Positions 16,705 through 53,776 of a DNA stretch of 64,000 nucleotides are shown piece by piece; position 1 is the first letter of the stretch, and each line of letters begins with the position of its first letter. The position numbers were made by a program, and so were the translations under genes. The stretch is from Spirochaetia bacterium (GTDB lineage: Bacteria; Spirochaetota; Spirochaetia; CADAEX01). The DNA lies in assembly GCA_045606105.1 (NCBI GenBank), contig JAZURI010000007.1, forward strand, positions 1 through 64,000. Direction: 5' to 3'. Below the pieces are notes generated by a model, which saw nothing but the letters and a program-made list of their open reading frames with translations, made no database searches and had not been told where the DNA came from.

Positions 16705-16741
16705 ATAAACAAATTTTATGTAGTGATAACTAAAGGTTATC
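16705..16741. promoter_or_regulatory. Tandem LysR-type operator boxes
   Basis: ATAAA-CAAAT-TTTAT (16705-16719) and GATAAC-TAAAG-GTTATC (16725-16741, perfect arms), 21 bp apart; T-N11-A core. Confidence 0.7.
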
Positions 16742-16782
16742 AAAGTTATGAAATTAAATATCGAAGTAATATTTTTTCCAAC

Positions 16783-16811
16783 TTGACCTTGAAGCGATAT
16801 TCCATTACATT
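16783..16811 (+). promoter_or_regulatory. sigma70 promoter for the 16885 operon
   Basis: TTGACC-17bp-TACATT; AGGAGG SD before ATG 16885. Confidence 0.55.
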
Positions 16812-16884
16812 TAAACCAAAGAAAAAATTTTGCCTGAAACTTTGTTACGGACGGCGGATTTATAAAATTTAGGAGGAGTAAAGT

Positions 16885-17781
16885 ATGGATCGTAAACCAT
16901 TGATCCAGAGAAAGACTGGTATTTCTTACAAAACAGAAGAAAAAACAGTTTTGCGCGGTTATAACGTATGTGAGCTCGCAGATGCAGGTTACACATTCAT
17001 CGACGCACTGTATATTCTTTTTCAGGGAAGAATTCCTGCAGAAAACGAAAGAGCTATGCTCGACTACGAAGTTGCAGAGTTCCTTGAGCACTCAATGTCA
17101 CCTTCAGCAGCAGCTGCTATCGGTGTAATCAACGGACATCCAATGCTCCCAGCAGCAGTTGGAGCATCAATCATGACATTCGGTGGAGCACACGGACCTG
17201 GAGCTCAGCACGGATACATGATGAAGAAATATCTTGACAGAGCTTGCGACGAACACAAGACTGTTAAAGAAGTTGCTATCGAATGTGTAAACGAATACAT
17301 GGATGCAGGTAGAGCAGTTATGGGTATGGGACAGCCACAGCACCTCGACGGTGACCCAAGAGCAGAACCTACTCACCTCAAGCAGGAAGAACTCGGAGCA
17401 TGCGGTGTATACCTTGAGTTCCAGAGAGCTCTCGAAGCTAAATTCTATGAAAGAAGATTTGCTGAAGGCAGATCATATGTTGCAGTAAACATGGTTGGAG
17501 CTGGTAACACAGCACTTTCCGACATGGGATTCTCACCAAACGCAGCTTGGACAATCGGTTGTGTAACAAGAGGTTACAGCTGTTCTTGCCACGCCCTCTT
17601 CACATTGAAGAAAGGTAGAGCTTGGGGTGCTTCCAGAAACGAACCTATGGTACAGATGCTTGACCTTTCAATGATCAAATACATCGGACCAGAAGACAGA
17701 GAAGTTCCACTTCAGTCAGAAAGAGAAGAATATGCTATGAACGAACTTAAGACAGGAGAATTTAAGAAATGGGTGATTTAA
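16885..17781 (+). CDS. Citrate-synthase/citryl-CoA-lyase-fold protein, subunit A (non-canonical active site)
   Basis: TGIS....LRGY, EHSMSPS, FGGAHGPG, GMGQ..DPRA, VNMVG; CCL-like length. Confidence 0.75.
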   Translation: MDRKPLIQRKTGISYKTEEKTVLRGYNVCELADAGYTFIDALYILFQGRIPAENERAMLDYEVAEFLEHSMSPSAAAAIGVINGHPMLPAAVGASIMTFGGAHGPGAQHGYMMKKYLDRACDEHKTVKEVAIECVNEYMDAGRAVMGMGQPQHLDGDPRAEPTHLKQEELGACGVYLEFQRALEAKFYERRFAEGRSYVAVNMVGAGNTALSDMGFSPNAAWTIGCVTRGYSCSCHALFTLKKGRAWGASRNEPMVQMLDLSMIKYIGPEDREVPLQSEREEYAMNELKTGEFKKWVI

Positions 17782-18884
17782 CAAACGTTGCTGTTAATAG
17801 AATGACAGGAAAAGTTTGCGATGAAAGAATCGCACAGATGAAACATTCTAAGAGAAGACCAATCGGTAACCTTGCAAATCCTAGTTTGCTTTTCGATTAC
17901 ACAAACAGAGAGATTGGAACACTTCCAGATGACAACAGAGCACACTTCCAGTGGGTTTCTGAAGTTGCATACAAAAACATTCACAGAATCGTAACAAGAG
18001 GTTACGATACAACAGAGCTCGTAGAAGCTGGTTATGGAGTTTGTGATGTACTCTTCATCGACTTCCAGGCTAGAATTCCACTCGTTGAAGAAAGAAAAGT
18101 TCTTGACTACATCCTCGTATGCGGTCTCGAAGATGGTCTTTCCAACCCAGCTCTTATCGCAAGACTCGTAACCAGAGGTAAATCATACCTTACACAGGCT
18201 TGTGGTTCATCAGTACTTGCTTTCGGACAGGCTTACGGTGCTTTCCAGGCATTCGGAAAAATGCTCGAAAAATACTATGCTAAGATTGCTGAAGAAGGTA
18301 TCACAGCTGAAGAAGCTGCAGCACTTTGTGTTGAAGAATGCTATGCTGAAGATCACTTCGGAATCAACGAATTCTACGTAAAAGACGAAACACCTAAGCA
18401 CCTTCTCGCTTACGCTGAAGCACAGCTCGCTGGAAAGAAGGAAGTTAAGTACATTCCTTTCCTCAAGCTCGTTGTTGCTGCTGCTCAGAAGAAGCTCGGA
18501 TATGTTGAAGCTGAACTCATGGCTGCTATGTGTGCTGCATTCATGGACCTCGACTTCACACCAGACGCTGCATGGTGTATCATGGGTGTTACAAGAGCAT
18601 TCTCAGCTGGTGCTCACGCTTGTGAAGAGCTCGAAAGAGAATGTCAGGTTACAGGATTTGACTCATACGGAAAGACACTCACACCAAAAGAATGGTATGA
18701 TGGTCCATGCGACAAGCCAGTTCCTCCAATTTCCGAAAGAGGAAACTTCAAGGGCGGACAGGCTCAGACACCAGAAGAGTGGAGAGCTAGCTGGCAGAGA
18801 AAAGCTAAAGAGCTTACAGGTTCCGGTTTCGCTATTGACTTCGTTCTTGACGATGCAAGAAAGGTTGTTCACGGAAAAAAATAA
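17769..18884 (+). CDS. Citrate-synthase/citryl-CoA-lyase-fold protein, subunit B (degenerate catalytic motifs)
   Basis: SEVAY..IVTRGY, EDGLSNP, FGQAYGA, DLDFTPDAAW..VTRA..AHACEE; 13-nt overlap with subunit A and its own GGAG SD. Confidence 0.65.
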   Translation: MGDLTNVAVNRMTGKVCDERIAQMKHSKRRPIGNLANPSLLFDYTNREIGTLPDDNRAHFQWVSEVAYKNIHRIVTRGYDTTELVEAGYGVCDVLFIDFQARIPLVEERKVLDYILVCGLEDGLSNPALIARLVTRGKSYLTQACGSSVLAFGQAYGAFQAFGKMLEKYYAKIAEEGITAEEAAALCVEECYAEDHFGINEFYVKDETPKHLLAYAEAQLAGKKEVKYIPFLKLVVAAAQKKLGYVEAELMAAMCAAFMDLDFTPDAAWCIMGVTRAFSAGAHACEELERECQVTGFDSYGKTLTPKEWYDGPCDKPVPPISERGNFKGGQAQTPEEWRASWQRKAKELTGSGFAIDFVLDDARKVVHGKK

Positions 18885-18914
18885 TTCTGGCTTAACTGCT
18901 TAGAATAATTTTTC

Positions 18915-18960: not shown

Positions 18961-18987
18961 AAAAATCTATTATAGGAGATGATAAAA

Positions 18988-20424
18988 ATGGCAGATATTT
19001 CTATCCAGGAAATGTATGAACGCGGAAGAAAAGCTTTCGAGTGGATTGAATTCAAGACACAGGAAGAAGTTGATGAAATCGTAGCAATCGTTGGTTGGCA
19101 GTACATGCAGAAAGAGGTTGCTGAAGAAGGTTCAAAACTTGCTTACGAAGGCTCCGGAATGGGTGTTCAGAAGGACAAATACGGAAAAGCTGGAAAGGTA
19201 AGAGGTATCCTCTGGGATATGAAAGGTGCAAAGACATGTGGTATCATCGCTGAAGATCACGTAAGAGGAATCACAACATGGGCAAAACCAATGGGTGTTG
19301 TTGCTAACGTATGTCCTTGTACAAACCCTTGTATCACAGCTGCTTTCATCGGTCTTACACTTCTTAAGACAAGAAACGCAATGATCTGTTCACCACACCC
19401 AAGAACAAAGCTTGCTACAGTTAACGCTATCCAGTGGGGTAGAAAAGCTCTCAAGGCTATCGGTGCTCCTGAAGACCTCTTCCAGTGTATCGAAGAACCT
19501 TCCAACGAAAAGACAGTTGAACTCATGTCAAAGTGTGACTTCGCTGTAGCTACAGGTGGAAAGGCTCTTATCAAAGTTGTACACATGGCTGGTACACCAT
19601 CTGTAACAGTAGGTGCTGGTAACGTAAGAGCAATCATCGACCCATCAGCTGACCTCAAGAAGGCTGCTATGTGTGTTGCTGCTTCCAAGACATACGACAA
19701 CGCTACATCATGTTCATCTGAAAACGCTGTATCTATCCATGTAAGCGTATACGACGAAATGATCAAATACCTCGAAGAAGAGGGTGGATACCTCCTCGGA
19801 GACGAAGACAGAGAAAAACTCAGAGCTGCTATGTGGCCTGATGGACATACACTCAACAGAGACATCGTTGCTAAGCCAGTTCAGACAATTGCTGACATCG
19901 CCGGAATCAAGGTTCCTGAAGGAACAAGATTCATCATGGTTAAGGGACAGAAGATTGGTCCGGAAGACATGTTCTCAAACGAAAAGCTTTCTCTTATCCT
20001 CACAGTATGGACATGGGAAGATTTCGAAACAGAAATTGCTACACTCAAGAAGAACCTTTACTTCTCAGGTGTTGGTCACTCATGTGCTCTCCACTCAACA
20101 AAACCAGAACAGTGGTACAGACTTGCTGAGTACATCCCTACAGGCCGTGTAAACATCAACATGCCTAACACAGTTGTAAACAGCGGTAGCTGGTTCGCAG
20201 GACAGGAATTCACAACAACAATCGGTTGTGGTACATGGACAGGAAACAGCCACTCTGACAACATCAACTTCAGACACTTCATCAACACAACAAGAATGGC
20301 AGTTCCAAGAGCTTGGTATGTTGCTTCTGATGACGAAGTTTGGGGAAAACACCTTGCTAAGGCTAAGGCTCTTATTGGTGACAACAGAGTTGAAATGCCA
20401 CACAAACCAAAATATCTTGATTGA
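18988..20424 (+). CDS. CoA-acylating aldehyde dehydrogenase, SauS (sulfoacetaldehyde dehydrogenase)-like
   Basis: KPMGVV..PCTNP, SPHPR, ATGG, GAGN, KTYDNATSCSSEN (catalytic Cys), EKLS, GHS, GCGTW; start moved to ATG 18988 for SD spacing. Confidence 0.85.
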   Translation: MADISIQEMYERGRKAFEWIEFKTQEEVDEIVAIVGWQYMQKEVAEEGSKLAYEGSGMGVQKDKYGKAGKVRGILWDMKGAKTCGIIAEDHVRGITTWAKPMGVVANVCPCTNPCITAAFIGLTLLKTRNAMICSPHPRTKLATVNAIQWGRKALKAIGAPEDLFQCIEEPSNEKTVELMSKCDFAVATGGKALIKVVHMAGTPSVTVGAGNVRAIIDPSADLKKAAMCVAASKTYDNATSCSSENAVSIHVSVYDEMIKYLEEEGGYLLGDEDREKLRAAMWPDGHTLNRDIVAKPVQTIADIAGIKVPEGTRFIMVKGQKIGPEDMFSNEKLSLILTVWTWEDFETEIATLKKNLYFSGVGHSCALHSTKPEQWYRLAEYIPTGRVNINMPNTVVNSGSWFAGQEFTTTIGCGTWTGNSHSDNINFRHFINTTRMAVPRAWYVASDDEVWGKHLAKAKALIGDNRVEMPHKPKYLD

Positions 20425-20441
20425 TTTTAATCAATATTTTG

Positions 20442-20469
20442 AAGGCTCCTTTCGGGGAGCCTTTTTTTT
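20442..20469 (+). terminator. Intrinsic terminator
   Basis: AAGGCTCCT-TTCG-GGGAGCCTT followed by a T-run. Confidence 0.85.
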
Positions 20470-20491
20470 ACTTTACTTATAAGGAATAAAC

Positions 20492-21193
20492 ATGATAAAA
20501 GCATTGATTTTTGATTTCGTGCAGACTCTGGGAGATGCTGCCAGCGGATATAAGGACGGAGAAAAGAATTCTCAGAATAAGCTGATAGAAAAATTCGGTA
20601 TTACAGATACAGAAAAGTTTCTTGAAGATTATCGTGCAGTCAGAAAAAAGCATTTTCTTGCAGCCGATTTTTCACGCAGGAATCAGTGGCTTGAACTTCA
20701 GGAAATCTACGGTGTGGATGCCGGAGAGGAATTCCTCGACAATCTTGAAAATGAATACTGGGCATTTGTTATCAATGCCATGAAGCTTTTCCCTGAAGTT
20801 GAAGAGGTTCTTGTTTCCTTAGGAAAGAAGTATAAGCTGGGAATGATCTGCAATTCACAGGTTGACGGTGCATCAAGGGCACTCCAGAGTCCTGAATTCG
20901 GAAGAGCACAGAAGTTCTTCGACCATTGTATCCTGTCCGGAGAAAACGGTGTTCCTGCAAAGCCATCTCCTGTTCCTTTCAACATGATGCTTGAAGCACT
21001 GGATGTAAAGCCGGAGGAGGCAATCTTTATCGGCGATGACTACCGTGTGGATATCGAAGGGGCCACAGGGGCAGGTATCTCTCCTGTATGGCTGAAGCAC
21101 TATTCCGTAAAGAGAAACTGGCCGGAAAACACAATGAATGTACCTGAAATCACAGACCTGAGACAGGTTGCAGAGCTGGACATTCTGAAATAA
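20492..21193 (+). CDS. HAD superfamily (subfamily IA) hydrolase with atypical motif I
   Basis: LIFDFVQTL, ICNS, AKPSP, IGDDYRVDIEGA. Confidence 0.85.
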   Translation: MIKALIFDFVQTLGDAASGYKDGEKNSQNKLIEKFGITDTEKFLEDYRAVRKKHFLAADFSRRNQWLELQEIYGVDAGEEFLDNLENEYWAFVINAMKLFPEVEEVLVSLGKKYKLGMICNSQVDGASRALQSPEFGRAQKFFDHCILSGENGVPAKPSPVPFNMMLEALDVKPEEAIFIGDDYRVDIEGATGAGISPVWLKHYSVKRNWPENTMNVPEITDLRQVAELDILK

Positions 21194-21212: not shown

Positions 21213-21254
21213 TTGACTATAACTAAAGTAGGATGTATCATAAAATTCAGTTAT
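21213..21254 (+). promoter_or_regulatory. LysR gene promoter overlapped by two putative autoregulatory boxes
   Basis: TTGACT(21213)-17bp-TATCAT(21236); half-match ATAAC-TAAAG (21219) and ATAAA-ATTCA-GTTAT (21240-21254), 21 bp apart. Confidence 0.65.
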
Positions 21255-22167
21255 GAATTTATATCATCTGAAAACATTTTACTTTACAGCAAAGTACAAG
21301 AGCCTTACAAAAGCTGCCGAATATCTGTGCATAACCCAGCCTGCGGTTACCAAGCAGATCAAGCAGCTGCAGAGTCACTACAACCTCAAGTTTCTCGATA
21401 TCATCGGGAAAAAAGTCATTCTTACCGATGCAGGGCTGAATCTTTTCACCATAGCAGAAAAAATCTTTGACATGGAATCCCAGGCTGAAGAGGCTATAAA
21501 GGATTTCCAGGAATACAACAAGGGAAAAATAAGTATCCTGGCTTCCGAAAGCTTCGGCTCGTACCATATTCCGTACATTGTCAGCCAGTTCCGGAACACA
21601 AGGCCTGAAATCAGCATTTCCATCCAGACAGCCACAAACAAGTATATAATAGAAAGCATTTCCGAGCTGAAGGAGGATATCGGCTTTATTTCCGCCCCGG
21701 TTCTCAACCCAAAGATATCGGTTCATGAGGTCATGGAGGATGATATAGTTCTGGTTGCAAGCCCGCGGTGTCATTTTTCCAATGTCAAGGAGCTGGACCC
21801 GGCCGATCTTGCCGGCAAGGATATCATAGTCCATGAGCAGGGGTCCGTGGTAAGGAAGGTGGTGGATGCCTATCTCAAAAGAAACCACATCAACACCGGG
21901 GTAAAGTACGAAATTTCCAACAATGAGGCAATAAAGAAGCTGCTTCGTAAAAATATGGGAGTTGCTTTCCTGACAAAAAGCGTTATCCATGAGGAGCTGG
22001 AAAGAGGCTCTCTTATGGCAGTTCCTGTTCCTGACAGGAATTTCAAAAGAAAATATTACATGATATATCACAGTGAAAAATATTTTTCCAAACCTCTTGC
22101 CGATTTCAGGGATCTGCTTCTGAGGTGGCCTGAAATTTTTCCTACATTATTCGGCAGACAGGTATGA
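21253..22167 (+). CDS. LysR family transcriptional regulator (CysL/CmpR-like)
   Basis: LKTF...SLTKAAEYLCITQPAVTKQIKQL..LTDAG; PBP2 domain with E.GS..R. Confidence 0.93.
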   Translation: MNLYHLKTFYFTAKYKSLTKAAEYLCITQPAVTKQIKQLQSHYNLKFLDIIGKKVILTDAGLNLFTIAEKIFDMESQAEEAIKDFQEYNKGKISILASESFGSYHIPYIVSQFRNTRPEISISIQTATNKYIIESISELKEDIGFISAPVLNPKISVHEVMEDDIVLVASPRCHFSNVKELDPADLAGKDIIVHEQGSVVRKVVDAYLKRNHINTGVKYEISNNEAIKKLLRKNMGVAFLTKSVIHEELERGSLMAVPVPDRNFKRKYYMIYHSEKYFSKPLADFRDLLLRWPEIFPTLFGRQV

Positions 22168-22937
22168 AAATTAAAGAACTGATTGATGACATTCTTGAGG
22201 CAGGCGATTTCGCTTACTGTGCCCAGGAGAAGGTAACAAGGGGACTGAAATCTGACGGTTCGGTCATAACAGAGGTGGATCTGGAAATCAACAGCAGGAT
22301 CAGCCGGAGAATCAGGGAGCTTTATCCCGAAGCCAATCTCATAACTGAGGAGGCTGACAGCAGCTACGATCCTTCAAGGGAATATACCTTTGTTCTGGAC
22401 CCGCTGGACGGTACCGATGTTTACAGCCAGGGGATGCCGGGCTGGTGTGTGGCCCTGGGACTGTTACGGAATCTGAAGCCGGTGGCAGGAATCATCTATG
22501 CTCCGGCCTGGGGACCGAAATACGGGAATCTCCTTTATACCGAAGAGGGTGGTGCGGTCTATCACAACGGCATGAAATACGATATTGAAAAGAAGGAATC
22601 GGATTCCATGCATATCCTTATTCCATCCTCCATTCACAAGGAGTATGATTATTCTTCCTTTTCGGGAAAAATCAGGAATACAGGTTCATCTATAATATCC
22701 CTTTCCGGTCTGCTGCTGCACCAGTCGGTAACAGGGGTTATCATCAACCGGGGCTATATCTGGGATATGGCAGCGGCCGATGCAATAATAAGAAAATTCG
22801 GATTCATGCCGGAATATCTTTCCGGTGAAAAAATAGATTATTCAGAAATAACGGACAGAAACAGACAGAAGGATTACGTAGTCTGCGGGTATTCAGCTGC
22901 AGTTTCGGAAATCCGTAAAAATTTTATAAGGAAGTAA
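22164..22937 (+). CDS. Inositol monophosphatase / CysQ (FIG) family phosphatase
   Basis: VITEVD, ITEE, LDPLDGT, IWDMAAA. Confidence 0.88.
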   Translation: MKIKELIDDILEAGDFAYCAQEKVTRGLKSDGSVITEVDLEINSRISRRIRELYPEANLITEEADSSYDPSREYTFVLDPLDGTDVYSQGMPGWCVALGLLRNLKPVAGIIYAPAWGPKYGNLLYTEEGGAVYHNGMKYDIEKKESDSMHILIPSSIHKEYDYSSFSGKIRNTGSSIISLSGLLLHQSVTGVIINRGYIWDMAAADAIIRKFGFMPEYLSGEKIDYSEITDRNRQKDYVVCGYSAAVSEIRKNFIRK

Positions 22938-22938
22938 T

Positions 22939-23418
22939 ATGGCAGAATGTTGCTGCAAAAAGAAAAATCTGCAGGAAGCAGAAGAGATTGTGGCACTGAT
23001 CGGGGGTGCTAAGGAGAGGATTATTCCGCTGCTCCAGGAAATTCAGAAACGAAAGGGATATCTTCAGGAGGAGCTGATAAATGATGTGGCGCAGGTTACA
23101 GGAATCAAGGCTGCTGAATTTTTCAGTGTAGGAACTTTTTATTCACAGTTCCGGTTTACTCCGTTGGGAAAAAACATAATCAAGCTCTGCAAGGGAACAG
23201 CCTGCTTTGTGGCAGGGGCCGATTCTCTCATCGATACGGCTGAAAGCTGTCTCGGAATAAAAAGCGGAGAAACCACACCGGACGGAAAATTTACGCTGGA
23301 AACAGTATCATGTCTGGGCTGCTGCTCGCTGGCTCCGGTGGCTATGATCAATGACAAGGTCTACGGCAAGGTAACCAGGTCAAGACTGGCTGAGCTTATC
23401 AAGGAGTGCGGAGAATGA
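22939..23418 (+). CDS. NuoE/HydC-like [2Fe-2S] subunit
   Basis: TFYSQF, CKGTAC, SCLGCCSLAP. Confidence 0.92.
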   Translation: MAECCCKKKNLQEAEEIVALIGGAKERIIPLLQEIQKRKGYLQEELINDVAQVTGIKAAEFFSVGTFYSQFRFTPLGKNIIKLCKGTACFVAGADSLIDTAESCLGIKSGETTPDGKFTLETVSCLGCCSLAPVAMINDKVYGKVTRSRLAELIKECGE

Positions 23419-25142
23419 AAAAGGAAATAAAGGTAGGTCTCGGCTCCTGCGGTATCGCATCGGGAGCTCAGGAGGTTTACGATTATCTGGAAAAGGAGCT
23501 GGCCGGTTCCGGTATCAGCCTGAAGAAAACCTCATGTATAGGTATCTGTTTCCAGGAGCCTATAGTCGAATATGTTTCCGACAATGAGCACATTTCCTAT
23601 GGAAAGGTGGATGTGAAATTTGCCGGAGAGCTTCTGGCCGGAATCCGCAGCGGTGAACTGCCGGCTTCAAACAGGATTTTCGATGATCCGGGGACAAAGG
23701 ATTTCGTGGGGCCTCAGGTAAAGGTAGCCCTGAAAAACTGCGGAAAGATAGATCCTGAAAACATAGATGAATATATTGAATGCGGCGGTTATGAGGGGTA
23801 CAGGAAGGCCCTGGAGATGACCGGCGACGAAATAATAGATCTTCTCAAGGAATCGGGACTGAAGGGAAGGGGCGGTGCCGGCTTCCTTACCGGTCAGAAA
23901 TGGTTTTTTCTGAAGAATGCCAAGGGTGATAAGAAATACCTTGTCTGCAATGCCGATGAGGGCGATCCGGGTGCATTCATGGACAGAGCCATCCTGGAGG
24001 GAGATCCCCACAGCCTTATCGAGGGAATGCTCATCGGCTCTCTGGCTACAGGGGCGGATGAAGGCTATGTTTACTGCCGTGCGGAGTATCCGCTGGCCCT
24101 GAAAAGGCTGAAGCTTGCCATTCAGGCTGCAGAATCAAGGGGCTTTCTCGGAAAGAATTTTACCCTTCATGTAAAGGAGGGGGCCGGAGCCTTTGTCTGC
24201 GGAGAAGAAACTGCCCTTATTGCCTCTATCGAGGGAAAGCGCGGTATGCCTAACATCAGGCCCCCTTTTCCGGCCGAATCGGGTGTAAAGGGAAAGCCTA
24301 CCAACATAAACAATGTGGAAACCTATGCCAATGTACCTCGTATTCTCTGCGACGGTGCGGAATCCTTCAATAAATACTGCTGCGGAAACAGCTACGGAAC
24401 CAAGGTCTTTGCCCTGGCCGGAAAAGTAAAGAGGGTAGGTCTGGTGGAGGTTCCTATGGGACTTACCATAAGACAGATCGTGGAAGAAATAGGGGGAGGC
24501 TCCTCCACAGGGCTTCCACTGAAGGCGGTACAGATGGGCGGTCCTGCAGGGGGCTGTATTCCCGAAGCCTTGTTTGATACCCCTATTGACTACGCCTCCA
24601 TCGGTGCCACCGGTGCCATCATGGGTTCCGGCGGTATGATAGTCATGGACAGCTCCTCCTGCATGGTGGATGTGGCAAAGTATTTCCTGCAGTTTACCCA
24701 GGCGGAATCCTGCGGAAAGTGTACCTTCTGCCGTATCGGAACCAAGAGGATGATGGAGATTCTTGAAAGAATAACCGAAGGAAAGGGTTGTATGGAGGAT
24801 CTTGAGCTTCTGGAGGAGCTTTCGGAGCTTGTAGGAAAAACTTCTCTCTGCGGTCTGGGTCAGCTGGCCCCAAATCCGGTCAAGACCACACTCCGTTATT
24901 TCAGGGACGAGTATATTGCCCACATTGAAGAGAAGAAATGTCCTGCCGGTGTATGCAGATCCCTTATCACCCTTGATATTGACAAGGAAAAATGTATCGG
25001 ATGCGGTGCCTGCCGCAAGGTCTGCCCGGTTGAGGCCATTTCCGGTGAGATAAAGAAGAGCCATGCCATTGATGCCGGAAAGTGTATCCGCTGCAAGGTA
25101 TGTGTTGAAAAATGCCGGTTCGATGCCATAAGGATTTCCTGA
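23415..25142 (+). CDS. NuoF/HydB-like FMN/NADH-binding subunit with N-terminal [2Fe-2S] and C-terminal 2x[4Fe-4S]
   Basis: GRGGAGF, NADEGDPGAFMDR, AFVCGEETAL, SCGKCTFCRIG, CIGCGACRKVCP; ATGA overlap. Confidence 0.93.
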   Translation: MKKEIKVGLGSCGIASGAQEVYDYLEKELAGSGISLKKTSCIGICFQEPIVEYVSDNEHISYGKVDVKFAGELLAGIRSGELPASNRIFDDPGTKDFVGPQVKVALKNCGKIDPENIDEYIECGGYEGYRKALEMTGDEIIDLLKESGLKGRGGAGFLTGQKWFFLKNAKGDKKYLVCNADEGDPGAFMDRAILEGDPHSLIEGMLIGSLATGADEGYVYCRAEYPLALKRLKLAIQAAESRGFLGKNFTLHVKEGAGAFVCGEETALIASIEGKRGMPNIRPPFPAESGVKGKPTNINNVETYANVPRILCDGAESFNKYCCGNSYGTKVFALAGKVKRVGLVEVPMGLTIRQIVEEIGGGSSTGLPLKAVQMGGPAGGCIPEALFDTPIDYASIGATGAIMGSGGMIVMDSSSCMVDVAKYFLQFTQAESCGKCTFCRIGTKRMMEILERITEGKGCMEDLELLEELSELVGKTSLCGLGQLAPNPVKTTLRYFRDEYIAHIEEKKCPAGVCRSLITLDIDKEKCIGCGACRKVCPVEAISGEIKKSHAIDAGKCIRCKVCVEKCRFDAIRIS

Positions 25143-25143
25143 T

Positions 25144-35121: not shown

Positions 35122-35195
35122 GATCCATTAGCTCAGCAGGATAGAGCGCTTCCCTCCTAAGGAAGAGGCCGCCCGTTCGAATCGGGCATGGATCA
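35122..35195 (+). tRNA. tRNA-Arg(CCT)
   Basis: GATCCAT..TAGCTCAG..CTTCC-CT-CCT-AA-GGAAG..GTTCGAAT..ATGGATC-A. Confidence 0.95.
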
Positions 35196-46730: not shown

Positions 46731-48074
46731 ATGAAAAGTGCAGATCTGATTCTTAAGAATGCGGCAGTGGTTACAATGAACTCCTCCATGGAGCTTTTCC
46801 TGAAGGGGGCTGTTGCCGTTACCGGAAATAAAATTATTGCAGTGGGGCCGGAAGAGGTTATCTGTGGGGAATATGCTGCAACCGAAACCCTGGACTGCGG
46901 CGGAAAGGTTCTCATGCCGGGTCTGGTAAACACCCATACCCATCTTCCCATGAATCTTCTCAGGGGGATTTCCGATGACAGGGCCCTGGATGAATGGCTG
47001 GGCAAGTACATAATGCCTGCCGAAAGGATTTTCGTGAACAGGGAATTCTGCCGTATCGGAACAGAAATGGCCTGTGCCGAGCTTATCCAGGGGGGAGTCA
47101 CCTCCTTTGCCGACATGTATTATTTCGAAGATACCGTTCTTGAGGCTGCAGCTTCTGCCGGTCTCAGGGGAATCGGTGCTGCCTCTGTCCTCATGTTTCC
47201 TACACCCGATGCCTCCGGTGCGGAGGAGGGGCTCCGTATTGCCCGGGAGCTGATAGAGAAGTTCAGGGAGCATCCTCTGGTTGTTCCTGCAGTGGGTCCT
47301 CATGCTCCGTATACCACAACTCCGGAGATACTTAAAAAATGTGCCGGTCTTGCACGGGAGTACGATGTGCCGGTTCTCATGCACCTGGCCGAAACCAAGG
47401 GTGAAAGAGAAAACGTGATCAGGGAATACGGCAAGGGGGTTATTTCCTATGTCTGTGACTGCGGTCTTCTTGCTGCAAAGCTTGTGGGAGCTCATCTGAT
47501 TCATGTGGATGAGGATGAAATAAAGCTTCTGGCTTCAAAGGGGTGCGGTGCCGCGTTTAATCCCGGCTCGAACCTTAAGCTGGTTTCCGGCTTTCCGAAA
47601 ATAACTGAATTTGCCGACAGAGGTGTCAGATGCGGTCTGGGTACCGACGGTGCCGCTTCCAACAATGATCTCGACATGTTTGAGGAAATGAGACTTGCCT
47701 CCTTTGTAGGGAAGCTCATGACCGGAAGTCCTGTTTCCCTTCCGGCGGTACAGGTTCTCCGTATGGCCACCATCGGAGGTGCCGAGGCTCTTTATATGGA
47801 CGGTATCACAGGCTCGCTGGAGCCGGGCAAGAGGGCGGATCTTATCCTGGTGGACATTTCAACTCCTCACAATGCCCCTTCCTTTGTCCATAATGACGAG
47901 AATATCTATTCAAGGCTGGTATATGCAACCAAGGCAAGCGATGTTACCCATGTCATGACAGAGGGAAAATGGCTTATGAAGGACCGTGTGCTGCTTACCC
48001 TGGATACAGACCGGATTCTGGCCGAGGCAGAAGGATGTGCCGGGGCCATCAGCCGGTATTTCCTGGAAAACTAG
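46731..48074 (+). CDS. Amidohydrolase, MTA/SAH deaminase (MtaD) family
   Basis: PGLVNTHTH, GPHAPYT, HLAET, AH, LGTDGAASNNDLDMFEEMR. Confidence 0.88.
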   Translation: MKSADLILKNAAVVTMNSSMELFLKGAVAVTGNKIIAVGPEEVICGEYAATETLDCGGKVLMPGLVNTHTHLPMNLLRGISDDRALDEWLGKYIMPAERIFVNREFCRIGTEMACAELIQGGVTSFADMYYFEDTVLEAAASAGLRGIGAASVLMFPTPDASGAEEGLRIARELIEKFREHPLVVPAVGPHAPYTTTPEILKKCAGLAREYDVPVLMHLAETKGERENVIREYGKGVISYVCDCGLLAAKLVGAHLIHVDEDEIKLLASKGCGAAFNPGSNLKLVSGFPKITEFADRGVRCGLGTDGAASNNDLDMFEEMRLASFVGKLMTGSPVSLPAVQVLRMATIGGAEALYMDGITGSLEPGKRADLILVDISTPHNAPSFVHNDENIYSRLVYATKASDVTHVMTEGKWLMKDRVLLTLDTDRILAEAEGCAGAISRYFLEN

Positions 48075-48892
48075 AAGTTAAGATCCACCCCTTCAGGGAG
48101 AAGCTTCTCATCCTTTGTCTTCAGGTACTCTATAAGGATAGGGTATTCCGTAAGGAGTGCCCCGTATTTTTTAAGGGTTTCTATTCTCTTTTCTATCTCT
48201 GAAGTATAGACTGCGCTGTCCTTTTCCTGTGTCAGCACCAGCTCCTTCTTTGTTTCAAGCATTTCCAGGTACTGCTTTTTGCCCTCTGCATAAAGCTCTG
48301 TATCGGGAAAGCTCAGCGAAACAGCTTCAATGCCGATAATTTCTGCCTCTTCAAGGGAAGAAAGCCTTTCCATGATTTTTCCTGCAAGTGCCTCTCCCGA
48401 TGCTGCCGGCCGTTTTTCCCTCAGGGCATTGCCGGTCTCCTCTGCCAGGACTGATGAACAGATACCGGTTATCTTCTCTTCGGCATCCTTCAGTATATCC
48501 TCTGTCCCCTTGTCACCCATGAGTCCTGCCACAGCCAGGTTGTAGAGGCATTCTTCCTTTATTTTATAGGTAACCCTGAACTCGCAGCTGTAGGAAAAGT
48601 CGGGATTTCCCTCAAGCACGGTACTGTAGACACTTCCGGAAGGGTATTCTCCCGAAACCGAAATGCGGGAATCGGCTGTTTCGGTGCTGAAAATCCTTAT
48701 TGTATGGTTATTGGGAATAAGCTTCTGCCATTTCCAGTTGATCTGTCCCGGCTTCATGAGGGAGCTGTCATAGCCGGCGATGTCGGAGTAGATGAGTCCG
48801 ACGCTGTTCTCCGGAATCCTGACCCAGCCGAAGTAGAACACCGTACCGGAGAGAATAAGTAAAAGAATCAAAAAAACGATAAATTTCTTCAT
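48071..48892 (-). CDS. Membrane-anchored SPFH/band-7-like hypothetical protein
   Basis: N-terminal TM, GW..IP...GL, PG.INW.WQ.LIP, C-terminal coiled coil. Confidence 0.55.
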   Translation of the reverse strand: MKKFIVFLILLLILSGTVFYFGWVRIPENSVGLIYSDIAGYDSSLMKPGQINWKWQKLIPNNHTIRIFSTETADSRISVSGEYPSGSVYSTVLEGNPDFSYSCEFRVTYKIKEECLYNLAVAGLMGDKGTEDILKDAEEKITGICSSVLAEETGNALREKRPAASGEALAGKIMERLSSLEEAEIIGIEAVSLSFPDTELYAEGKKQYLEMLETKKELVLTQEKDSAVYTSEIEKRIETLKKYGALLTEYPILIEYLKTKDEKLLPEGVDLNF

Positions 48893-48946
48893 TGACACCA
48901 CCTTTTCTACAATTATATATAAAATTCGCAGGTTGGCAACCGAAAT

Positions 48947-49014
48947 ATAACCTCAAGTTCTGCTATGTATGACAATTTGTATATTATGTTATCGGAATGA
49001 TAAACTAAGGTTAT
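48947..49014. promoter_or_regulatory. LysR-type operator boxes upstream of the TRAP operon
   Basis: ATAAC-CTCAA-GTTCT (48947-48961) and ATAAA-CTAAG-GTTAT (49000-49014), matching 16726-16740. Confidence 0.6.
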
Positions 49015-49149
49015 TGAAAAAATAAAATACAGTAAAATTAATGATGAAAAAATTCTATTTCTTCCCGAATGCCGGGAGCTTTTTGGGAAGAAACCTAAAA
49101 AGTTATCGAAAAATTATTTTTTTTAATCTGAATACCGAGAAAAAAAATA

Positions 49150-49177
49150 TTGACACTTGAGGAATTTGAAATATAAT
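49150..49177 (+). promoter_or_regulatory. sigma70 promoter for dctP
   Basis: TTGACA-16bp-TATAAT; AGGAG SD. Confidence 0.7.
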
Positions 49178-49207: not shown

Positions 49208-50419
49208 ATGATGAAAAAAAGATGTGTTCTTACTACACTGCTTTTAATCGTTGTTCTGCTCGCAAGCTGTGGTGGAAATTCTGCACCAGCAGCAGCTGAA
49301 GCTGCACCTGCAGCAGCAGCCGCTCCGGTTGAAACATTCAACTGGAAGATGGTTTCATGTTGGTCACCACAGTATCACCTTGGAGACCAGGACCGTGAAT
49401 TCATGGTTCGTCTTGATGCTCTCGTTGGCGATCAGATGAAAGTTGACTACTTCGTAGAAAACGCACTCGTAGGACCAAAAGAGGTTTTCGATGCAGTTAA
49501 AGACGACGTTGCTCAGTTTGGTTCCGACTATCCAGGATACTGGGCCGGAAAAGACACAGCATTCAACCTGCTCTCTTCATGGCCAATGTGGATGGATGCA
49601 TATGACTACATTAACTGGATCTACTACGATCCAAGTTTCGCTGGTCGTATGAACGACGAAATCGCAAAACCAGGTAACAGCGTTGGACAGGGTATGAAAG
49701 AGTACAAGAGAGTATACGGAAACTTCGGAATCGAAGCATTCCCATTCGGACCTATCACAATCGAATCTGGTCCTAGAGGTACAAAGCCTATCAAAGGTCT
49801 TGCTGACTACAAAGGACTCAAAATCAGAATGTCTGGTTCATCACAGGGACAGATCCTGAAGAAACTCGATGCAGCTCAGGTTGGTATCCAGAGCTCAGAA
49901 GTTTATCAGGCTATGCAGACCGGTGTTATCGATGCAGCTGAATCTTGTACACCTTACCTCGACTGGGGTCTCGGATACAACGAAATCACAAAGTACTCAT
50001 CACACCCAGGTTGGCACCAGCCAGGTTCTATGTGTTCTCTTCTCGTAAACAAGGCTAAATATGATGCTCTCCCACAGAACATCAAGTCAGCTATCGAAAT
50101 TGCAGCTCAGGCAACAGCTCTGCAGACACTCGCAATGGAAGACAGAACATCAGGTATCTACACAAACAAATTCAAGAGCGAAGTTGGCGTACAGTCATTC
50201 AAGCTTCCTGAAGCAGACCTCAAGATTCTTGCTGGTTACAGTGTAGAAATTATGTACGAATTTGCTGCAAAGAACCCTTCTTTCGCACAGACAGCTTACT
50301 CAATGGCTTCTTATATGCATGAGTATCAGGCTTGGAGACAGCTCAATGACATCTACGGTCATGGATGGGCAGATCTTCCACTTCCTGACCTTGCTAAGCT
50401 GAAAAGCTACATCAAATAA
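49208..50419 (+). CDS. dctP: TRAP transporter substrate-binding lipoprotein (DctP/TakP-like)
   Basis: Lipobox LASC with Ala/Pro linker; WKMVSCW, YWAGK, GLKIRMSG, MQTGVIDAAE, PGWHQPG. Confidence 0.9.
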   Translation: MMKKRCVLTTLLLIVVLLASCGGNSAPAAAEAAPAAAAAPVETFNWKMVSCWSPQYHLGDQDREFMVRLDALVGDQMKVDYFVENALVGPKEVFDAVKDDVAQFGSDYPGYWAGKDTAFNLLSSWPMWMDAYDYINWIYYDPSFAGRMNDEIAKPGNSVGQGMKEYKRVYGNFGIEAFPFGPITIESGPRGTKPIKGLADYKGLKIRMSGSSQGQILKKLDAAQVGIQSSEVYQAMQTGVIDAAESCTPYLDWGLGYNEITKYSSHPGWHQPGSMCSLLVNKAKYDALPQNIKSAIEIAAQATALQTLAMEDRTSGIYTNKFKSEVGVQSFKLPEADLKILAGYSVEIMYEFAAKNPSFAQTAYSMASYMHEYQAWRQLNDIYGHGWADLPLPDLAKLKSYIK

Positions 50420-50444
50420 GATTGCTTTTTGACGGAAGTTTCCG

Positions 50445-50524
50445 TAAAGTCTGTCGGGTAACCGGCAGACTTTATCAGGAGGCGCAAGCGGGCATCGGGC
50501 TAAAGCCTAATGCCCTTACTTTTT
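50445..50524 (+). terminator. Double hairpin / partial terminator between dctP and dctQ
   Basis: TAAAGTCTGTCGG-4-CCGGCAGACTTTA; GGGCATCGGGC-4-GCCTAATGCCC followed by TTACTTTTT. Confidence 0.65.
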
Positions 50525-50652
50525 GTAAAAAAAGAGCTTGTGTTTATTGGTTTGGAAACTATTAATTCTTGGTAAAATAATTTTCGAAAATCATTTAGAT
50601 TTTCTTGCGAATAAAATAAATAGAGCTATTTATTTAGGAGAAATATTTTAAA

Positions 50653-51183
50653 ATGAGAAATTTGGCGCATAAGTACTGTTTTCTTGCCGACACTCTCAGT
50701 GACTGGGTAGGAAAAACATGTATGTGGTCTGCGGCAATTGGTATGCTTATCATGATTTACGAAGTATTCACAAGATACGTATTCCACATGGCTAATGACT
50801 GGGTTTTTGAAACCACAATTATGATTTATGCTTTCCATTTCTGTATGTGTGCTTCTTATGCACTCAAAAATGGTGCGCATGTTGCTATTGACATCATTTC
50901 CGGAAGATGCAGCCTCAGAACACAGGCTATCCTGGATATGATTTCATACATTATCTTTTTCTTTCCTTCTGTTGGTGTTGTATTCTTCAGAGGAATCAAG
51001 TTCGCAGCTGACTCATGGAGGATCAAAGAGGTTTCATGGTCAGAGTTCCCTGCACCTATCTATCTTCAGAAGACTATCATTCCTGTAATGTCAGGTCTTC
51101 TCCTTATTCAGGGTCTTGCTATCTTCATCAGAAGAATTGAACAGGCAATTGACGGTGACAACTACAAAAAGGAGGCAAAATAA
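50653..51183 (+). CDS. dctQ: TRAP transporter small permease
   Basis: YEVFTRYVF..W..E, HVAIDI, 4 TM helices. Confidence 0.9.
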   Translation: MRNLAHKYCFLADTLSDWVGKTCMWSAAIGMLIMIYEVFTRYVFHMANDWVFETTIMIYAFHFCMCASYALKNGAHVAIDIISGRCSLRTQAILDMISYIIFFFPSVGVVFFRGIKFAADSWRIKEVSWSEFPAPIYLQKTIIPVMSGLLLIQGLAIFIRRIEQAIDGDNYKKEAK

Positions 51184-52547
51184 TGGGATTTGAAGGTTTT
51201 GTAATGACTCCTGGGTTCGTAGCCGTTGCTATGTTCATAGGTCTTTTGGCTGGTCTTTTCCTTGGCCACCCACTTGCATTCGTTCTTGGTGGACTTGCTG
51301 TTATTTTCGGTTTCTTCAGCCAGAAATATCACGTGGCATTCCCATCACTTATGATGAATAAATTCAATGCGCAGATGTCCAACTACACCTATGTAGCCAT
51401 CCTATTCTTTATATTCATGGCGAACTTTATGGGTGAGTCGGGTATGGCGGACGGTCTCTTCAAGTCTGTACAGTATCTGTTCGGACCGGTAAGAGGTGGT
51501 ATTGCAGTTGCAGTAATCGTAGTATCTACACTCCTTGCTGCATGTACAGGTACAACTGGTGCTTCCTGTGTAACAATGGGTGTACTCGCTCTTCCTGTAA
51601 TGAAAGCTAACCATTACTCAATGAAGCTTTCCTGTGGTGCTATTGCCGGTTCATCTGCTCTTGGTATTCTTATCCCGCCTAGTATCATGCTCCTCGTACT
51701 TGCTGAGCTTTCAGGTTGTACAGTAGGACAGCTCTTCGCAGGTTCTATCCTTCCTGGTATTCTCCTTGCTGTAATGTATATCATCTACGCAGTTTACCAG
51801 TGCTGGAGACACCCTTGGAAAGGTCCTGCTCTTCCTCTCGAAGTAAGAAGACAGGTTACAAGAGGTCAGCTTGCAAAAATGCTCATTATCAACCTCTGTC
51901 CTCCTCTTCTCCTTATCGGTGCCGTACTTGGTGTACTCTTCACAGGTGTTGCTACACCTACTGAAGCATCTGCTACAGGTGCTTTCTGTGCACTCGGTCT
52001 TTACATCGGTTACGGAAGATTCTCATGGAAGGGTCTTGTAAAGATCATGGAAGACACAGCTAACACAGTATCTATGGTACTTATCGTTATGACAGGTGCC
52101 GGATTCTTCACAGCTATCTTCATGGGTCTTGGTGGTGGAGACGTTATCCAGGGTATGATCCTTGGTTGCGGTCTCGGAAAATGGGGTACATATGCCGTAA
52201 TGATGCTTATCTGCTTCTTCCTCGGTATGTTCCTCGACTGGACAGCTATCGTTATGATTACTCTTCCAATCTACCTCCCAATCGCAGACCAGATGGGAAT
52301 GGACAGACTTTGGTTCGTAGTATCTATCGCAGTAATGCTCCAGGACTCTTTCTGTACACCTCCGTTCGGATACAACCTGTTCTACCTGAAAGGTATTGCT
52401 CCGGAAGGTGTTACTACAGAAGATATCTATCTTGGTACTATTCCATATTGGGCAATCATGGAGTTGGGACTCGTTCTCTGCTGTGTATTCCCACAGCTCG
52501 TTACTTGGCTCCCAAGCGTTGCAGTTAAATTGCCTAACGCACAGTAA
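51183..52547 (+). CDS. dctM: TRAP transporter large permease
   Basis: GHPLAF, LGILIPPSI, ATPTEA, LGMFLDW, TPPFGYNLFYLKG. Confidence 0.93.
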   Translation: MGFEGFVMTPGFVAVAMFIGLLAGLFLGHPLAFVLGGLAVIFGFFSQKYHVAFPSLMMNKFNAQMSNYTYVAILFFIFMANFMGESGMADGLFKSVQYLFGPVRGGIAVAVIVVSTLLAACTGTTGASCVTMGVLALPVMKANHYSMKLSCGAIAGSSALGILIPPSIMLLVLAELSGCTVGQLFAGSILPGILLAVMYIIYAVYQCWRHPWKGPALPLEVRRQVTRGQLAKMLIINLCPPLLLIGAVLGVLFTGVATPTEASATGAFCALGLYIGYGRFSWKGLVKIMEDTANTVSMVLIVMTGAGFFTAIFMGLGGGDVIQGMILGCGLGKWGTYAVMMLICFFLGMFLDWTAIVMITLPIYLPIADQMGMDRLWFVVSIAVMLQDSFCTPPFGYNLFYLKGIAPEGVTTEDIYLGTIPYWAIMELGLVLCCVFPQLVTWLPSVAVKLPNAQ

Positions 52548-52568
52548 GAGCTGAAACAGTTATCAATA

Positions 52569-52600
52569 AGGTTGTCCCTCAGGGGGCAACCTGTTTTTTT
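52569..52600 (+). terminator. Hairpin/terminator between dctM and the ADH gene
   Basis: AGGTTGTCCC-TCAG-GGGGCAACCT followed by GTTTTTTT. Confidence 0.7.
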
Positions 52601-52633
52601 CTAAAAATTTTCAACTAAAAGAAGGTAAAAAAA

Positions 52634-53734
52634 ATGGGATGTTGTTGTAAAGCTGCTATCTTTGAAGAAACAGGAAAACCAATCGAAATCAAAGAATTCG
52701 AAATTCCTCAGACAATTGAAGAAAATGCAATGCTTGTAAAGGTTACATTCGCTACAATCTGCGGTTCTGACCTTCATACAATCACCGGTAAGAGAAAAGA
52801 GGCTGCTCCTCTTATCCTCGGACACGAGATTATCGGAACTATTGCTAAGCTCGGATCACCTAACCTTAAAGACGGTTACGGAAACGCTCTTAAGATCGGA
52901 GACAGAATTACTTGGACAATTATGGCTTCATGCGGTGAATGCTTCTACTGCCAGAAGGGTATTCCACAGAAGTGTGTAAAGCTTAAGAAATATGGTCATA
53001 CATGCTGCTATGACAAGGAAATCAAGTCAGGACTGGTTGGCGGTTACGGCGAATATGTATATATTCTCCCTGGAACAACAGTTTTCAAGCTTTCTGACAA
53101 GCTTTCCGACGAAGTTGCAACACCTGCTAACTGTGCTCTTGCTACAGTAGTAAACGCTGTTGAAACAATCGGTGTAGAGAAGGGCGATGCAGTTCTTATC
53201 CAGGGTGCAGGTCTTCTCGGACTTAACGCATGTGCTCTTTCCGCAGCTGCAGGTGCAAAGGTAATCATCATCACAGACGTTGTTGATTCCAGACTTGAAG
53301 ATGCAAAGAGATTCGGTGCAACACACACAATCAACCTCAAGGATGTTGCTGATACAGCAGACCTTGTAAACAAGATTAAAGAAATCGCTCCTTACGGAAT
53401 CGATGCTGCTCTTGAATTCTGCGGACGTGCAGAAGCTGCTACACAGGCTATCGCTGCTCTCAGAATCGGTGGAAGATACATGATCGCTGGTATGGTTAAC
53501 CCTACACCACTGGACATGGATGCAAACAACATCACAAGAAAGTGTCTTACAATCAAGGGTATCCACAACTATGCTCCACAGCATCTCGGAATTGCTCTTA
53601 AGTTCCTTGAAGAGAACCAGGACAAATTCCCATACAAAGAGCTTGTTGGCGAAACATTCCCACTGGAAAAGATTAACGAGGCTGTTGAAGTTTCCAAGTC
53701 TCAGAAATACATCAGAGTTGCTATCAAATACTGA
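52634..53734 (+). CDS. Zn-dependent alcohol dehydrogenase, HpnZ-like (phosphonate-catabolism-associated, TIGR03366-type)
   Basis: ATICGSDLHT..GKR, LGHE, GDRITW..SCGECFYC..GIPQKC..L.KYGH, PANCALATV, GAGLLGL, GIHNYAPQHL. Confidence 0.8.
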   Translation: MGCCCKAAIFEETGKPIEIKEFEIPQTIEENAMLVKVTFATICGSDLHTITGKRKEAAPLILGHEIIGTIAKLGSPNLKDGYGNALKIGDRITWTIMASCGECFYCQKGIPQKCVKLKKYGHTCCYDKEIKSGLVGGYGEYVYILPGTTVFKLSDKLSDEVATPANCALATVVNAVETIGVEKGDAVLIQGAGLLGLNACALSAAAGAKVIIITDVVDSRLEDAKRFGATHTINLKDVADTADLVNKIKEIAPYGIDAALEFCGRAEAATQAIAALRIGGRYMIAGMVNPTPLDMDANNITRKCLTIKGIHNYAPQHLGIALKFLEENQDKFPYKELVGETFPLEKINEAVEVSKSQKYIRVAIKY

Positions 53735-53747
53735 TTCTGATTTTTAT

Positions 53748-53776
53748 TCCCTCCCCTCCCGGGAGGGATTTTTTTT
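53748..53776 (+). terminator. Intrinsic terminator
   Basis: TCCCTCCC-5-GGGAGGGA followed by T8. Confidence 0.8.

Follow-up and report, generated by a model that had tools for sequence, protein, structure and literature searches.

A candidate CoA-thioester route for C2 phosphonate catabolism encoded at two loci of a gut spirochaete

Two loci on contig 7 of a gut spirochaete genome (Spirochaetia bacterium; 1.46 Mb in 11 contigs) probably encode a route in which a C2 phosphonate is catabolised as its coenzyme A (CoA) thioester, the carbon–phosphorus (C–P) bond being cleaved by a pair of citrate-synthase-fold proteins, CCL-A and CCL-B. Both loci lie in the window, the whole 64,000-nucleotide stretch that was analysed. 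Locus A encodes, in this order, CCL-A, CCL-B, a CoA-acylating aldehyde dehydrogenase (ALDH), a HAD-superfamily hydrolase, a LysR-family regulator and IMPase/CysQ-like, NuoE-, NuoF- and GltD-like proteins; locus B encodes a tripartite ATP-independent periplasmic (TRAP) transporter (DctP, DctQ and DctM) and a zinc-dependent alcohol dehydrogenase (ADH), and ∼22 kb of unrelated housekeeping genes lie between the two (Table 1). In the proposed scheme, DctPQM would import 2-hydroxyethylphosphonate (HEP) and the ADH would oxidise it to phosphonoacetaldehyde, which would also arise from 2-aminoethylphosphonate (AEP) through a PhnW encoded elsewhere in the genome; the ALDH would convert the aldehyde and CoA to phosphonoacetyl-CoA, CCL-A/CCL-B would release acetyl-CoA and phosphate, and Pta and AckA, both identified in the genome, would turn acetyl-CoA into acetate with a gain of ATP. 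The initial annotation of this DNA had outlined the same sequence of uptake, oxidation, CoA acylation and cleavage; all of its genes at both loci are confirmed in place, and genomic context supports its central idea. The analysis below shows which genes are present, how they are conserved and placed, which residues have changed and that known alternatives were not found; from this we infer the cleavage step and every other chemical step after the ADH, together with the ligand of the TRAP binding protein.

The genome contains two candidate sources of phosphonoacetaldehyde. The ADH passes the cut-off of the TIGR03366 model, in agreement with its earlier designation as HpnZ-like, and its next-best family, threonine dehydrogenase, scores 143 bits. 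The characterised enzyme of this type, PbfG of Cellulosimicrobium, was described in September 2026 as a pf00107 Zn-dehydrogenase that oxidises HEP to phosphonoacetaldehyde; in that paper it is the only enzyme shown to act on HEP, and its efficiency on isethionate is ∼10^4-fold lower than on HEP (PMC13576164). The same paper assigns Cys45, His66 and Cys166 as zinc ligands and Ser47, Arg56, His124 and Asn298 as HEP contacts (PMC13576164), sites that C43, S45, R54, H64, H122, C167 and N297/N298 of the window ADH match by position, as compared without an alignment. We propose that the ADH is a HEP dehydrogenase yielding phosphonoacetaldehyde. DctP, DctQ and DctM are all present and adjacent (49208–52547), DctP orthologues adjoin the ADH in relatives, and HEP is the proposed ligand of DctP. 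The second source is PhnW (383 bits, cut-off 360.8), found at a third phosphonate locus on contig 1 (178015–183000; L081:6516–11448) that also encodes a 176-residue unknown protein and a HAD-IIB protein, with a TAXI-type TRAP transporter divergent from it. As no PEP (phosphoenolpyruvate) mutase was found in the genome, this PhnW is taken to be catabolic.

Known consumers of phosphonoacetaldehyde were sought throughout the genome, the completeness of which is 99.03%. No protein exceeds the cut-off for PhnX (best 29.6 bits versus 220), PhnY (best 42 bits versus 636), PhnA or PhnJ (C–P lyase). PhnW and the PbfG-type ADH would thus make an aldehyde for which no known consumer was found, leaving the module of CCL-A, CCL-B and ALDH as the sole candidate. 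The absences listed in the initial annotation hold genome-wide for PhnX, PhnA, PhnY and PhnJ, whereas xsc, phnZ and glycyl-radical genes, also on its list, were not searched for. Among five other module-bearing genomes, PhnX exceeds its cut-off in none and PhnW in four.

The module is conserved as a unit and lies among phosphonate genes. One scan of species-representative genomes returned 213 CCL-A-related loci, from spirochaetes, sulfate reducers, syntrophs, Anaerolineae, Planctomycetes and Verrucomicrobia; the best 80 of these loci, from many anaerobic phyla, were studied. CCL-A is ∼70% identical across phyla. Wherever a locus extends far enough to contain it, CCL-B comes directly after CCL-A (72/72); ALDH is found no more than 4 kb from CCL-B in 55/56 loci, and HAD no more than 4 kb from ALDH in 44/55, being missing there in the other 11. 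To identify neighbours, all open reading frames (ORFs) of the 80 loci were clustered and the recurrent clusters scanned with profiles; a parallel tblastn count is stricter and missed some of the clustered PhnW genes. By clustering, PhnW-AepZ (430 bits, cut-off 360.8) occurs in 22 loci, often between CCL-B and ALDH, and PbfA (715 bits, cut-off 525) in 15. Genes for the PhnS2/T2/U2 AEP transporter and the PhnCDE transporter recur beside the module, with scores over the NCBIfam cut-offs for PhnS2 (451 bits), PhnT2 (469), PhnU2 (705), PhnE (249) and PhnC (307), as do genes for a phn_DUF6-like membrane protein and for the same ADH family. PhnA is also found among the neighbours (TIGR02335, 522 bits, cut-off 407.6). 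ADH and TRAP genes adjoin the module in other phyla, and in Syntrophales a LysR-ADH-TRAP unit is divergent from CCL-A. In the tblastn count, 39/80 loci carry one or more phosphonate markers or the ADH, and the share is 29/40 among non-spirochaete loci that are 12 kb or longer. For other phyla, the neighbourhood analysis called for by the initial annotation places the CCL-A/CCL-B homologues beside PhnW, PbfA, AEP/phosphonate ABC transporters, PhnA, ADH and TRAP genes. In 31 spirochaete genomes, CCL-A occurs with the ADH family in 14, CCL-A alone in three, ADH alone in three and neither in 11, a co-occurrence that is descriptive only, these genomes being kin and not independent.

Two other gene types were observed near the module in related loci. 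MtmB-family genes (monomethylamine methyltransferase-like; PF05369, 308 bits), often doubled, adjoin PbfA and PhnW upstream of the module (L080:6400–9191, L040:7154–9958, L035:8582–9955 and L022:7877–10697) and could serve an anaerobic, corrinoid-dependent demethylation of N-methylated aminophosphonates. A PHO4/PiT-type phosphate transporter (PF01384, 243 bits) is encoded near the module at L053:8099–9037 and L052:7928–8866 and in the spirochaete loci L009, L013 and L014; it may export or re-import released phosphate.

The ALDH shows full-length similarity to solved CoA-acylating dehydrogenases of the EutE/AdhE/SucD type. It aligns over residues 6–456 with 8CEI, a CoA-acylating succinate-semialdehyde dehydrogenase, at 310 bits, as compared with 257–268 bits for AdhE N-terminal domains and 236 bits for the acetaldehyde enzyme 5J78. 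Its earlier description as SauS-like stands in that SauS is its top family, above AdhE (364 bits) and the EutE-type TIGR02518 (302 bits), although the score is under the SauS cut-off. By these comparisons, CoA-acylating enzymes that act on anionic aldehydes resemble the ALDH most, ahead of the acetaldehyde enzymes, and we propose that it is a CoA-acylating phosphonoacetaldehyde dehydrogenase, its proposed substrate being the phosphonate analogue of sulfoacetaldehyde. It differs from SauS in its phosphonate neighbours and in the oxidative direction proposed for it; SauS in Cupriavidus reportedly works reductively.

The genes for CCL-A and CCL-B overlap by 13 nt. The closest solved relative of both proteins is the citryl-CoA lyase 6HXP (E 6.7e-18 and 3.1e-6, respectively), and both miss all citryl-CoA lyase cut-offs of NCBIfam (120 bits for CCL-A and 67 for CCL-B, versus 212). 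Source annotations name CCL-A only citrate synthase or hypothetical, and the names in a protein atlas are merely generic. Catalytic positions were mapped through the 6HXP alignment in the numbering of pig citrate synthase, and this numbering and the roles of His274, His320, Asp375, Arg329 and Arg401 we take to be those of the classical enzyme. In citrate synthase, His274 polarises the thioester for enolate formation and two arginines bind oxaloacetate, His320 acts on the oxaloacetate carbonyl, and Asp375 deprotonates acetyl-CoA. CCL-A retains the counterparts of His274 (H103), Arg329 (R159) and Arg401 (R229), all invariant in 23 diverse sequences, whereas an invariant glutamine (Gln150) replaces His320 and a valine (Val204) replaces Asp375, such that only His274 of the catalytic triad has a counterpart. 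In CCL-B, the position of His238 is taken by Asp122 and that of His274 by Tyr156, while nothing can be aligned with the lost His320 region; its alignable catalytic counterparts are gone, yet it has its own set of invariant residues. As judged from the alignment, CCL-A has lost the Claisen acid/base pair and retained the enolate-stabilising histidine, and we propose that it is the catalytic subunit of a phosphonoacetyl-CoA C–P hydrolase.

CCL-A and CCL-B are predicted to form a heterodimer. The modelled complex scores 0.81, with the best of three controls at 0.00; the score mark is reached by 58/80 solved complexes and 2/110 mismatched pairs, and in the model the partner predicted local distance difference test (pLDDT) value is at least 83 and the runs agree in at least 1% of contacts. 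Because solved dimers of citrate synthase and citryl-CoA lyase exist, the high score of the complex may reflect likeness to these and is not proof of pairing. Citryl-CoA lyase 6HXP and the lyase module of ATP-citrate lyase are similar in size and share the His274, Arg329 and Arg401 counterparts with CCL-A. Citryl-CoA lyase is, however, a homo-oligomer with a reductive tricarboxylic acid cycle context, whereas CCL-A/CCL-B would be a two-gene heteromer and has a phosphonate context.

The heterodimer would derive from citryl-CoA lyase and would take phosphonoacetyl-CoA as a mimic of citryl-CoA, its tetrahedral phosphorus taking the position of the tetrahedral C3 of citryl-CoA, a geometry that the old site would accommodate. 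Attack of water on the phosphorus would expel the acetyl-CoA enolate, held by His103, to give acetyl-CoA and phosphate; such an expulsion would parallel the retro-Claisen step as well as the known hydrolases that use a β-carbonyl as electron sink. The hydrolytic pathways for AEP and HEP share with the module the same feeders (PhnW, PbfA and PbfG), the same phosphonoacetaldehyde hub and the same logic, in which a carbonyl β to the phosphorus serves as electron sink for C–P hydrolysis. They differ in that PhnX or PhnY-PhnA carries out what an acylating ALDH and a citrate-synthase-fold pair would do here. A bolder variant would pass the phosphoryl group through a phospho-enzyme or an enol-phosphate, to be resolved by HAD or by a Janus-like phosphatase.

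HAD is treated as an accessory member of the module; a fifth of the loci do without it, and its codon usage is not strongly biased. Its motif I (FDFxQTL) is invariant, with the Asp nucleophile intact and a residue other than Asp at the Asp+2 position, and motifs III and IV are kept; its cap has three invariant Arg and no invariant Lys in 38 sequences. The best solved relative is PH0459, which has the same D-F-V motif. HAD is absent among the best 25 NCBIfam matches, and the PhnX model TIGR01422 has no match at 20492–21193, the best PhnX score cited above being located elsewhere in the genome. In related loci a Janus/Ocnus-like protein (phosphohistidine-phosphatase-like; PF05005, 36 bits) follows HAD in four cases by clustering and in six by tblastn, with sites in Desulfobacterales at L053:15703–16311, L075:15796–16338, L030:7626–8258 and L038:15510–16235; small genes of 114–129 residues and NUDIX genes recur near it. 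Such a phosphatase-like gene hints at a phospho-enzyme.

Four other readings of the module were weighed. The one that survives best, though we hold it unlikely, is that CCL-A/CCL-B acts merely as a thioesterase that turns phosphonoacetyl-CoA into phosphonoacetate, the C–P bond of which PhnA or HAD would then cut. Citrate synthases do hydrolyse citryl-CoA, PhnA follows HAD in some related loci, and HAD lacks the Asp+2 acid, as do hydrolases with a leaving group that requires no protonation. However, no PhnA was found in this genome, which is 99% complete, HAD is missing beside ALDH in 11/55 loci and lacks codon bias here, and a thioester would be made and then wasted without gain over the non-acylating PhnY. 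Moreover, the counterpart of His274, which would polarise a thioester for enolate formation, is invariant.

A quite improbable reading is that HAD is a divergent phosphonoacetaldehyde hydrolase, the ALDH an acetaldehyde dehydrogenase for its product, and CCL-A/CCL-B a pair with another role in acetyl-CoA metabolism. HAD is set off from ALDH by a terminator-like hairpin and by a fall in codon bias, and HAD is absent beside ALDH in a fifth of the loci, whereas CCL-A/CCL-B and ALDH are coupled in 55/56. The Schiff-base lysine of PhnX is located in the cap, where HAD has three invariant Arg in place of an invariant Lys, and no PhnX-model match accompanies the resemblance. That resemblance is shared with PhnX and other HADs without Asp+2 and consists of the Asp nucleophile, the missing Asp+2 acid (PhnX, a HAD enzyme, presumably also lacks it in motif I, and the module HAD reads D-F-x-Q-T) and motifs III and IV. 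Although the ALDH also matches TIGR02518 and AdhE, its scores are better with enzymes for anionic aldehydes, in the comparison with models as well as in that with structures.

It is very unlikely that CCL-A/CCL-B retains Claisen carbon–carbon chemistry, for example to condense acetyl-CoA and phosphonoacetaldehyde or to cleave a 3-hydroxyacyl-CoA. Citryl-CoA lyase does share the fold and is the nearest solved structure, but the acid/base pair is replaced by Gln150 and Val204 in CCL-A, the counterparts in CCL-B are also lost, and neither protein approaches the citryl-CoA lyase cut-off. Retro-Claisen cleavage of 3-hydroxyacyl-CoAs such as malyl-CoA or 3-hydroxy-3-methylglutaryl-CoA was dropped as a candidate in view of the phosphonate neighbours and the missing catalytic pair. 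Least probable of all is the isethionate alternative of the initial annotation, in which sulfoacetaldehyde and sulfoacetyl-CoA would be formed and the pair would cleave a C–S bond; SauS is the best NCBIfam match of the ALDH and TRAP systems for sulfonates are known, but no sulfonate-specific gene is found among the scanned recurrent neighbours of the related loci, whose specific neighbours are all phosphonate genes, PbfG strongly prefers HEP over isethionate, and a carbanion-type cleavage would presumably release SO3 and not sulfite, which is chemically unfavourable.

Codon usage sets the CoA-thioester genes apart from their neighbours. The effective number of codons (Nc) was ranked over the 1174 ORFs of the genome with at least 150 residues. 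At locus A the ALDH ranks 1, the lowest Nc in the genome, with CCL-B at 4 and CCL-A at 11; at locus B the ADH ranks 7, DctP 17, DctM 22 and DctQ 39. Elsewhere Pta ranks 3, PhnW 5, the TAXI binding protein 8, V-ATPase B 12, AckA 13 and V-ATPase A 29. As Pta, AckA and V-ATPase A/B belong to the same class, the biased class is read as that of highly expressed genes. HAD (rank 309), LysR (rank 511) and the IMPase/NuoEF/GltD genes have ordinary codon usage, and the extreme bias that the initial annotation ascribed to both loci as a whole accordingly applies to CCL-A, CCL-B, ALDH, DctPQM and ADH alone. The terminator-like hairpin after ALDH, taken with the drop in bias from HAD onwards, delimits CCL-A, CCL-B and ALDH as the high-expression unit.

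RNA-library cover was taken from Logan contigs. Of the words sampled from locus A, 0.33–0.65 are present in five RNA runs of two studies; within one study, three runs yield RNA-library contigs (1231–1297 letters, 0–2 differences) that span dctP end-to-end. Such cover is no proof of transcription, as DNA was possibly present, and its depth cannot rank genes. Contigs of three runs end at the hairpin that follows dctP (50440–50500); the hairpins flanking dctP may favour the message for the binding protein, through attenuation or through differences in stability. A 377-residue protein without a Pfam or NCBIfam match, encoded at 40632–41765 (−), has Nc rank 2 and RNA-library contigs in 4/4 runs examined, and it looks like an abundant protein. 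The HipA-like kinase gene at 35193–36074 (−; PF07804, 50.7 bits), also between the two loci, shows unusually even codon usage (Nc 56).

The regulation of the two loci was approached through the LysR-type boxes. A degenerate 16-mer built from the boxes before CCL-A and dctP has no match other than these two sites, either in the window or across the 1.46 Mb genome; any chance figure for the pair would be flattering, because the pattern was derived from the two sites themselves. An ATAAC-N5-GTTAT element with a variable centre lies ∼160 nt before CCL-A in 16/18 spirochaete loci and has the classical T-N11-A form of a LysR box. The true citrate synthase gene is divergent from CCL-A in 17/18 spirochaete loci (L001–L015, L017 and L018), so that the intergenic region with the LysR box is common to both. 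The LysR of locus A would control at least locus A; homologues are present in 27/80 related loci, and its assignment as phn_lysR is not borne out, the TIGR03339 score being 163.5 bits versus a cut-off of 341.1. A region on contig C8 next to a LysR paralogue was considered as a possible fourth locus and set aside as a V-type ATPase operon. The PhnW/TAXI-TRAP locus on contig 1 has no full box; the 14-mer GTTATTRAAAAAAT occurs genome-wide only at that locus and in the dctP box, a pattern picked post hoc.

Several observations weigh against the CoA-thioester route or its joint control. TRAP transporters are known for carboxylates and sulfonates and are not known for phosphonates. Phosphonoacetyl-CoA as a catabolic intermediate and C–P cleavage by a citrate-synthase fold are both argued from analogy, the ALDH misses the SauS cut-off (444 versus 600 bits), and no residue of CCL-A obviously takes over from the Asp as proton donor to the enolate. 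HAD is present with the module in most loci, yet the scheme gives it no necessary role. Phosphonate genes lie nearby in only 1/16 spirochaete loci of at least 12 kb, a figure that fits the split arrangement of the loci in the window. In other genomes PhnA is found beside the module in seven loci by clustering (three by tblastn) and a PhnX-like gene in three, such that the module could there merely feed known hydrolases. Finally, the exact box is found in 0/11 upstream regions of DctP in relatives, which keep merely a looser block, and the box at locus B lies ∼140 nt upstream of the consensus promoter with a hairpin in between. Because this box is unconserved and far upstream, co-regulation of locus B by LysR is not established; of the shared operator claimed in the initial annotation, the unique pair in the genome and the conservation before CCL-A stand, whereas the link to locus B is weaker than that to locus A.

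The genes downstream of LysR, encoding the IMPase/CysQ-, NuoE-, NuoF- and GltD-like proteins, probably form a redox module, but their membership in the pathway is doubtful. NuoE, NuoF and GltD occur together only in L004–L008; the incomplete locus L001 has NuoE and NuoF, and L002 has GltD alone. The NuoEF-GltD complex that was thought to serve the pathway is thus syntenic in the closest relatives, but only there, and its codon usage is ordinary. We take the trio (22939–27195) to resemble the Sporomusa-type electron-bifurcating transhydrogenase StnABC.

Table 1. Features of locus A, locus B and their flanks in the window (promoter-like sites are consensus matches)
Feature	Position	Strand	Details
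Citrate synthase (true)	15297-16646	-	NF010635 666 bits; divergent from CCL-A
LysR-type box GATAACTAAAGGTTAT	16725-16740		T-N11-A palindrome ATAAC-N5-GTTAT upstream of CCL-A
Promoter-like TTGACC-17-TACATT	16783-16811	+	Before CCL-A; consensus match only
CCL-A	16885-17781	+	298 aa; PF00285 44.7 bits (threshold 27)
CCL-B	17769-18884	+	371 aa; PF00285 19.3 bits, under gathering score 27; NF004869 67 bits
CoA-acylating ALDH	18979-20424	+	SauS model NF047625 444.4 bits, best NCBIfam match (cut-off 600)
Terminator-like hairpin	20441-20464	+	10 pairs and T run, after ALDH
HAD-superfamily hydrolase	20492-21193	+	Accessory module member
Promoter-like site	21213-21241	+	Before LysR
Box-like site ATAAAATTCAGTTAT	21240	+	Third box, overlaps LysR start
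LysR-family regulator	21253-22167	+	HTH_1 and LysR_substrate domains both present
IMPase/CysQ-like, NuoE-, NuoF-, GltD-like	22164-27195	+	Tightly packed after LysR; lineage-specific neighbour
Second box GATAAACTAAGGTTAT	48999-49014		Between divergent gene 48071-48901 and dctP
Hairpin	49062-49078		Between box and dctP promoter
Sigma-70 promoter-like TTGACA-16-TATAAT	49150-49177	+	Before dctP; 12/12 consensus
DctP solute-binding lipoprotein	49208-50419	+	403 aa; PF03480 105.7 bits
DctQ	50653-51183	+	PF04290 74.4 bits
DctM	51183-52547	+	PF06808 266.4 bits
Hairpins flanking ADH	52569-52592; 53748-53768		One on either side of the ADH gene
PbfG/HpnZ-type Zn-ADH	52634-53734	+	TIGR03366 335.7 bits, cut-off 328.1 passed

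Large amounts of organic phosphorus occur as phosphonates, in the sea as well as in guts. The known C–P cleavage chemistries are given as radical, oxidative and hydrolytic in PMC13576164, which names only PhnX or PhnY-PhnA as fates of phosphonoacetaldehyde and in which the words CoA, citrate, TRAP and anaerob* are absent. In the literature searched, which left out most subscription journals and supplements (including Tables S1/S2 on pbfG clusters of PMC13576164), we found neither a CoA-dependent fate for phosphonoacetaldehyde nor a role of these citrate-synthase-like genes in phosphonate catabolism described. Within the accessible portions of the same literature, phosphonoacetyl-CoA appears in a biosynthetic context in a preprint, with no catabolic role found, and phosphonoacetaldehyde appears together with citrate synthase in the biosynthetic context of FrbC; CoA is unmentioned in two recent context-driven papers of the phosphonate field. 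We rate the feeders, the phosphonoacetaldehyde hub and the hydrolytic logic as known, and the downstream enzymes and the intermediate as apparently undescribed. Surveys of phosphonate metabolism miss the module because its genes are labelled citrate synthase or hypothetical.

The broader claim, on which we are evenly divided, is that the CCL-A/CCL-B heterodimer represents a new class of C–P-cleaving enzyme acting on phosphonoacetyl-CoA, that it opens a third route from phosphonoacetaldehyde by which anaerobes use AEP and HEP as carbon and energy sources, and that this small-genome spirochaete, in which phosphonate genes rank alongside Pta, AckA and V-ATPase in codon bias, is a phosphonate specialist. 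If true, the CoA-dependent route would extend C–P cleavage by an enzyme class and by an intermediate, both new, and would explain how strict anaerobes without the known enzymes use phosphonates for carbon and energy. Acetyl-CoA would be obtained directly, and AEP and HEP would be more than a phosphorus source for anaerobes of many phyla.

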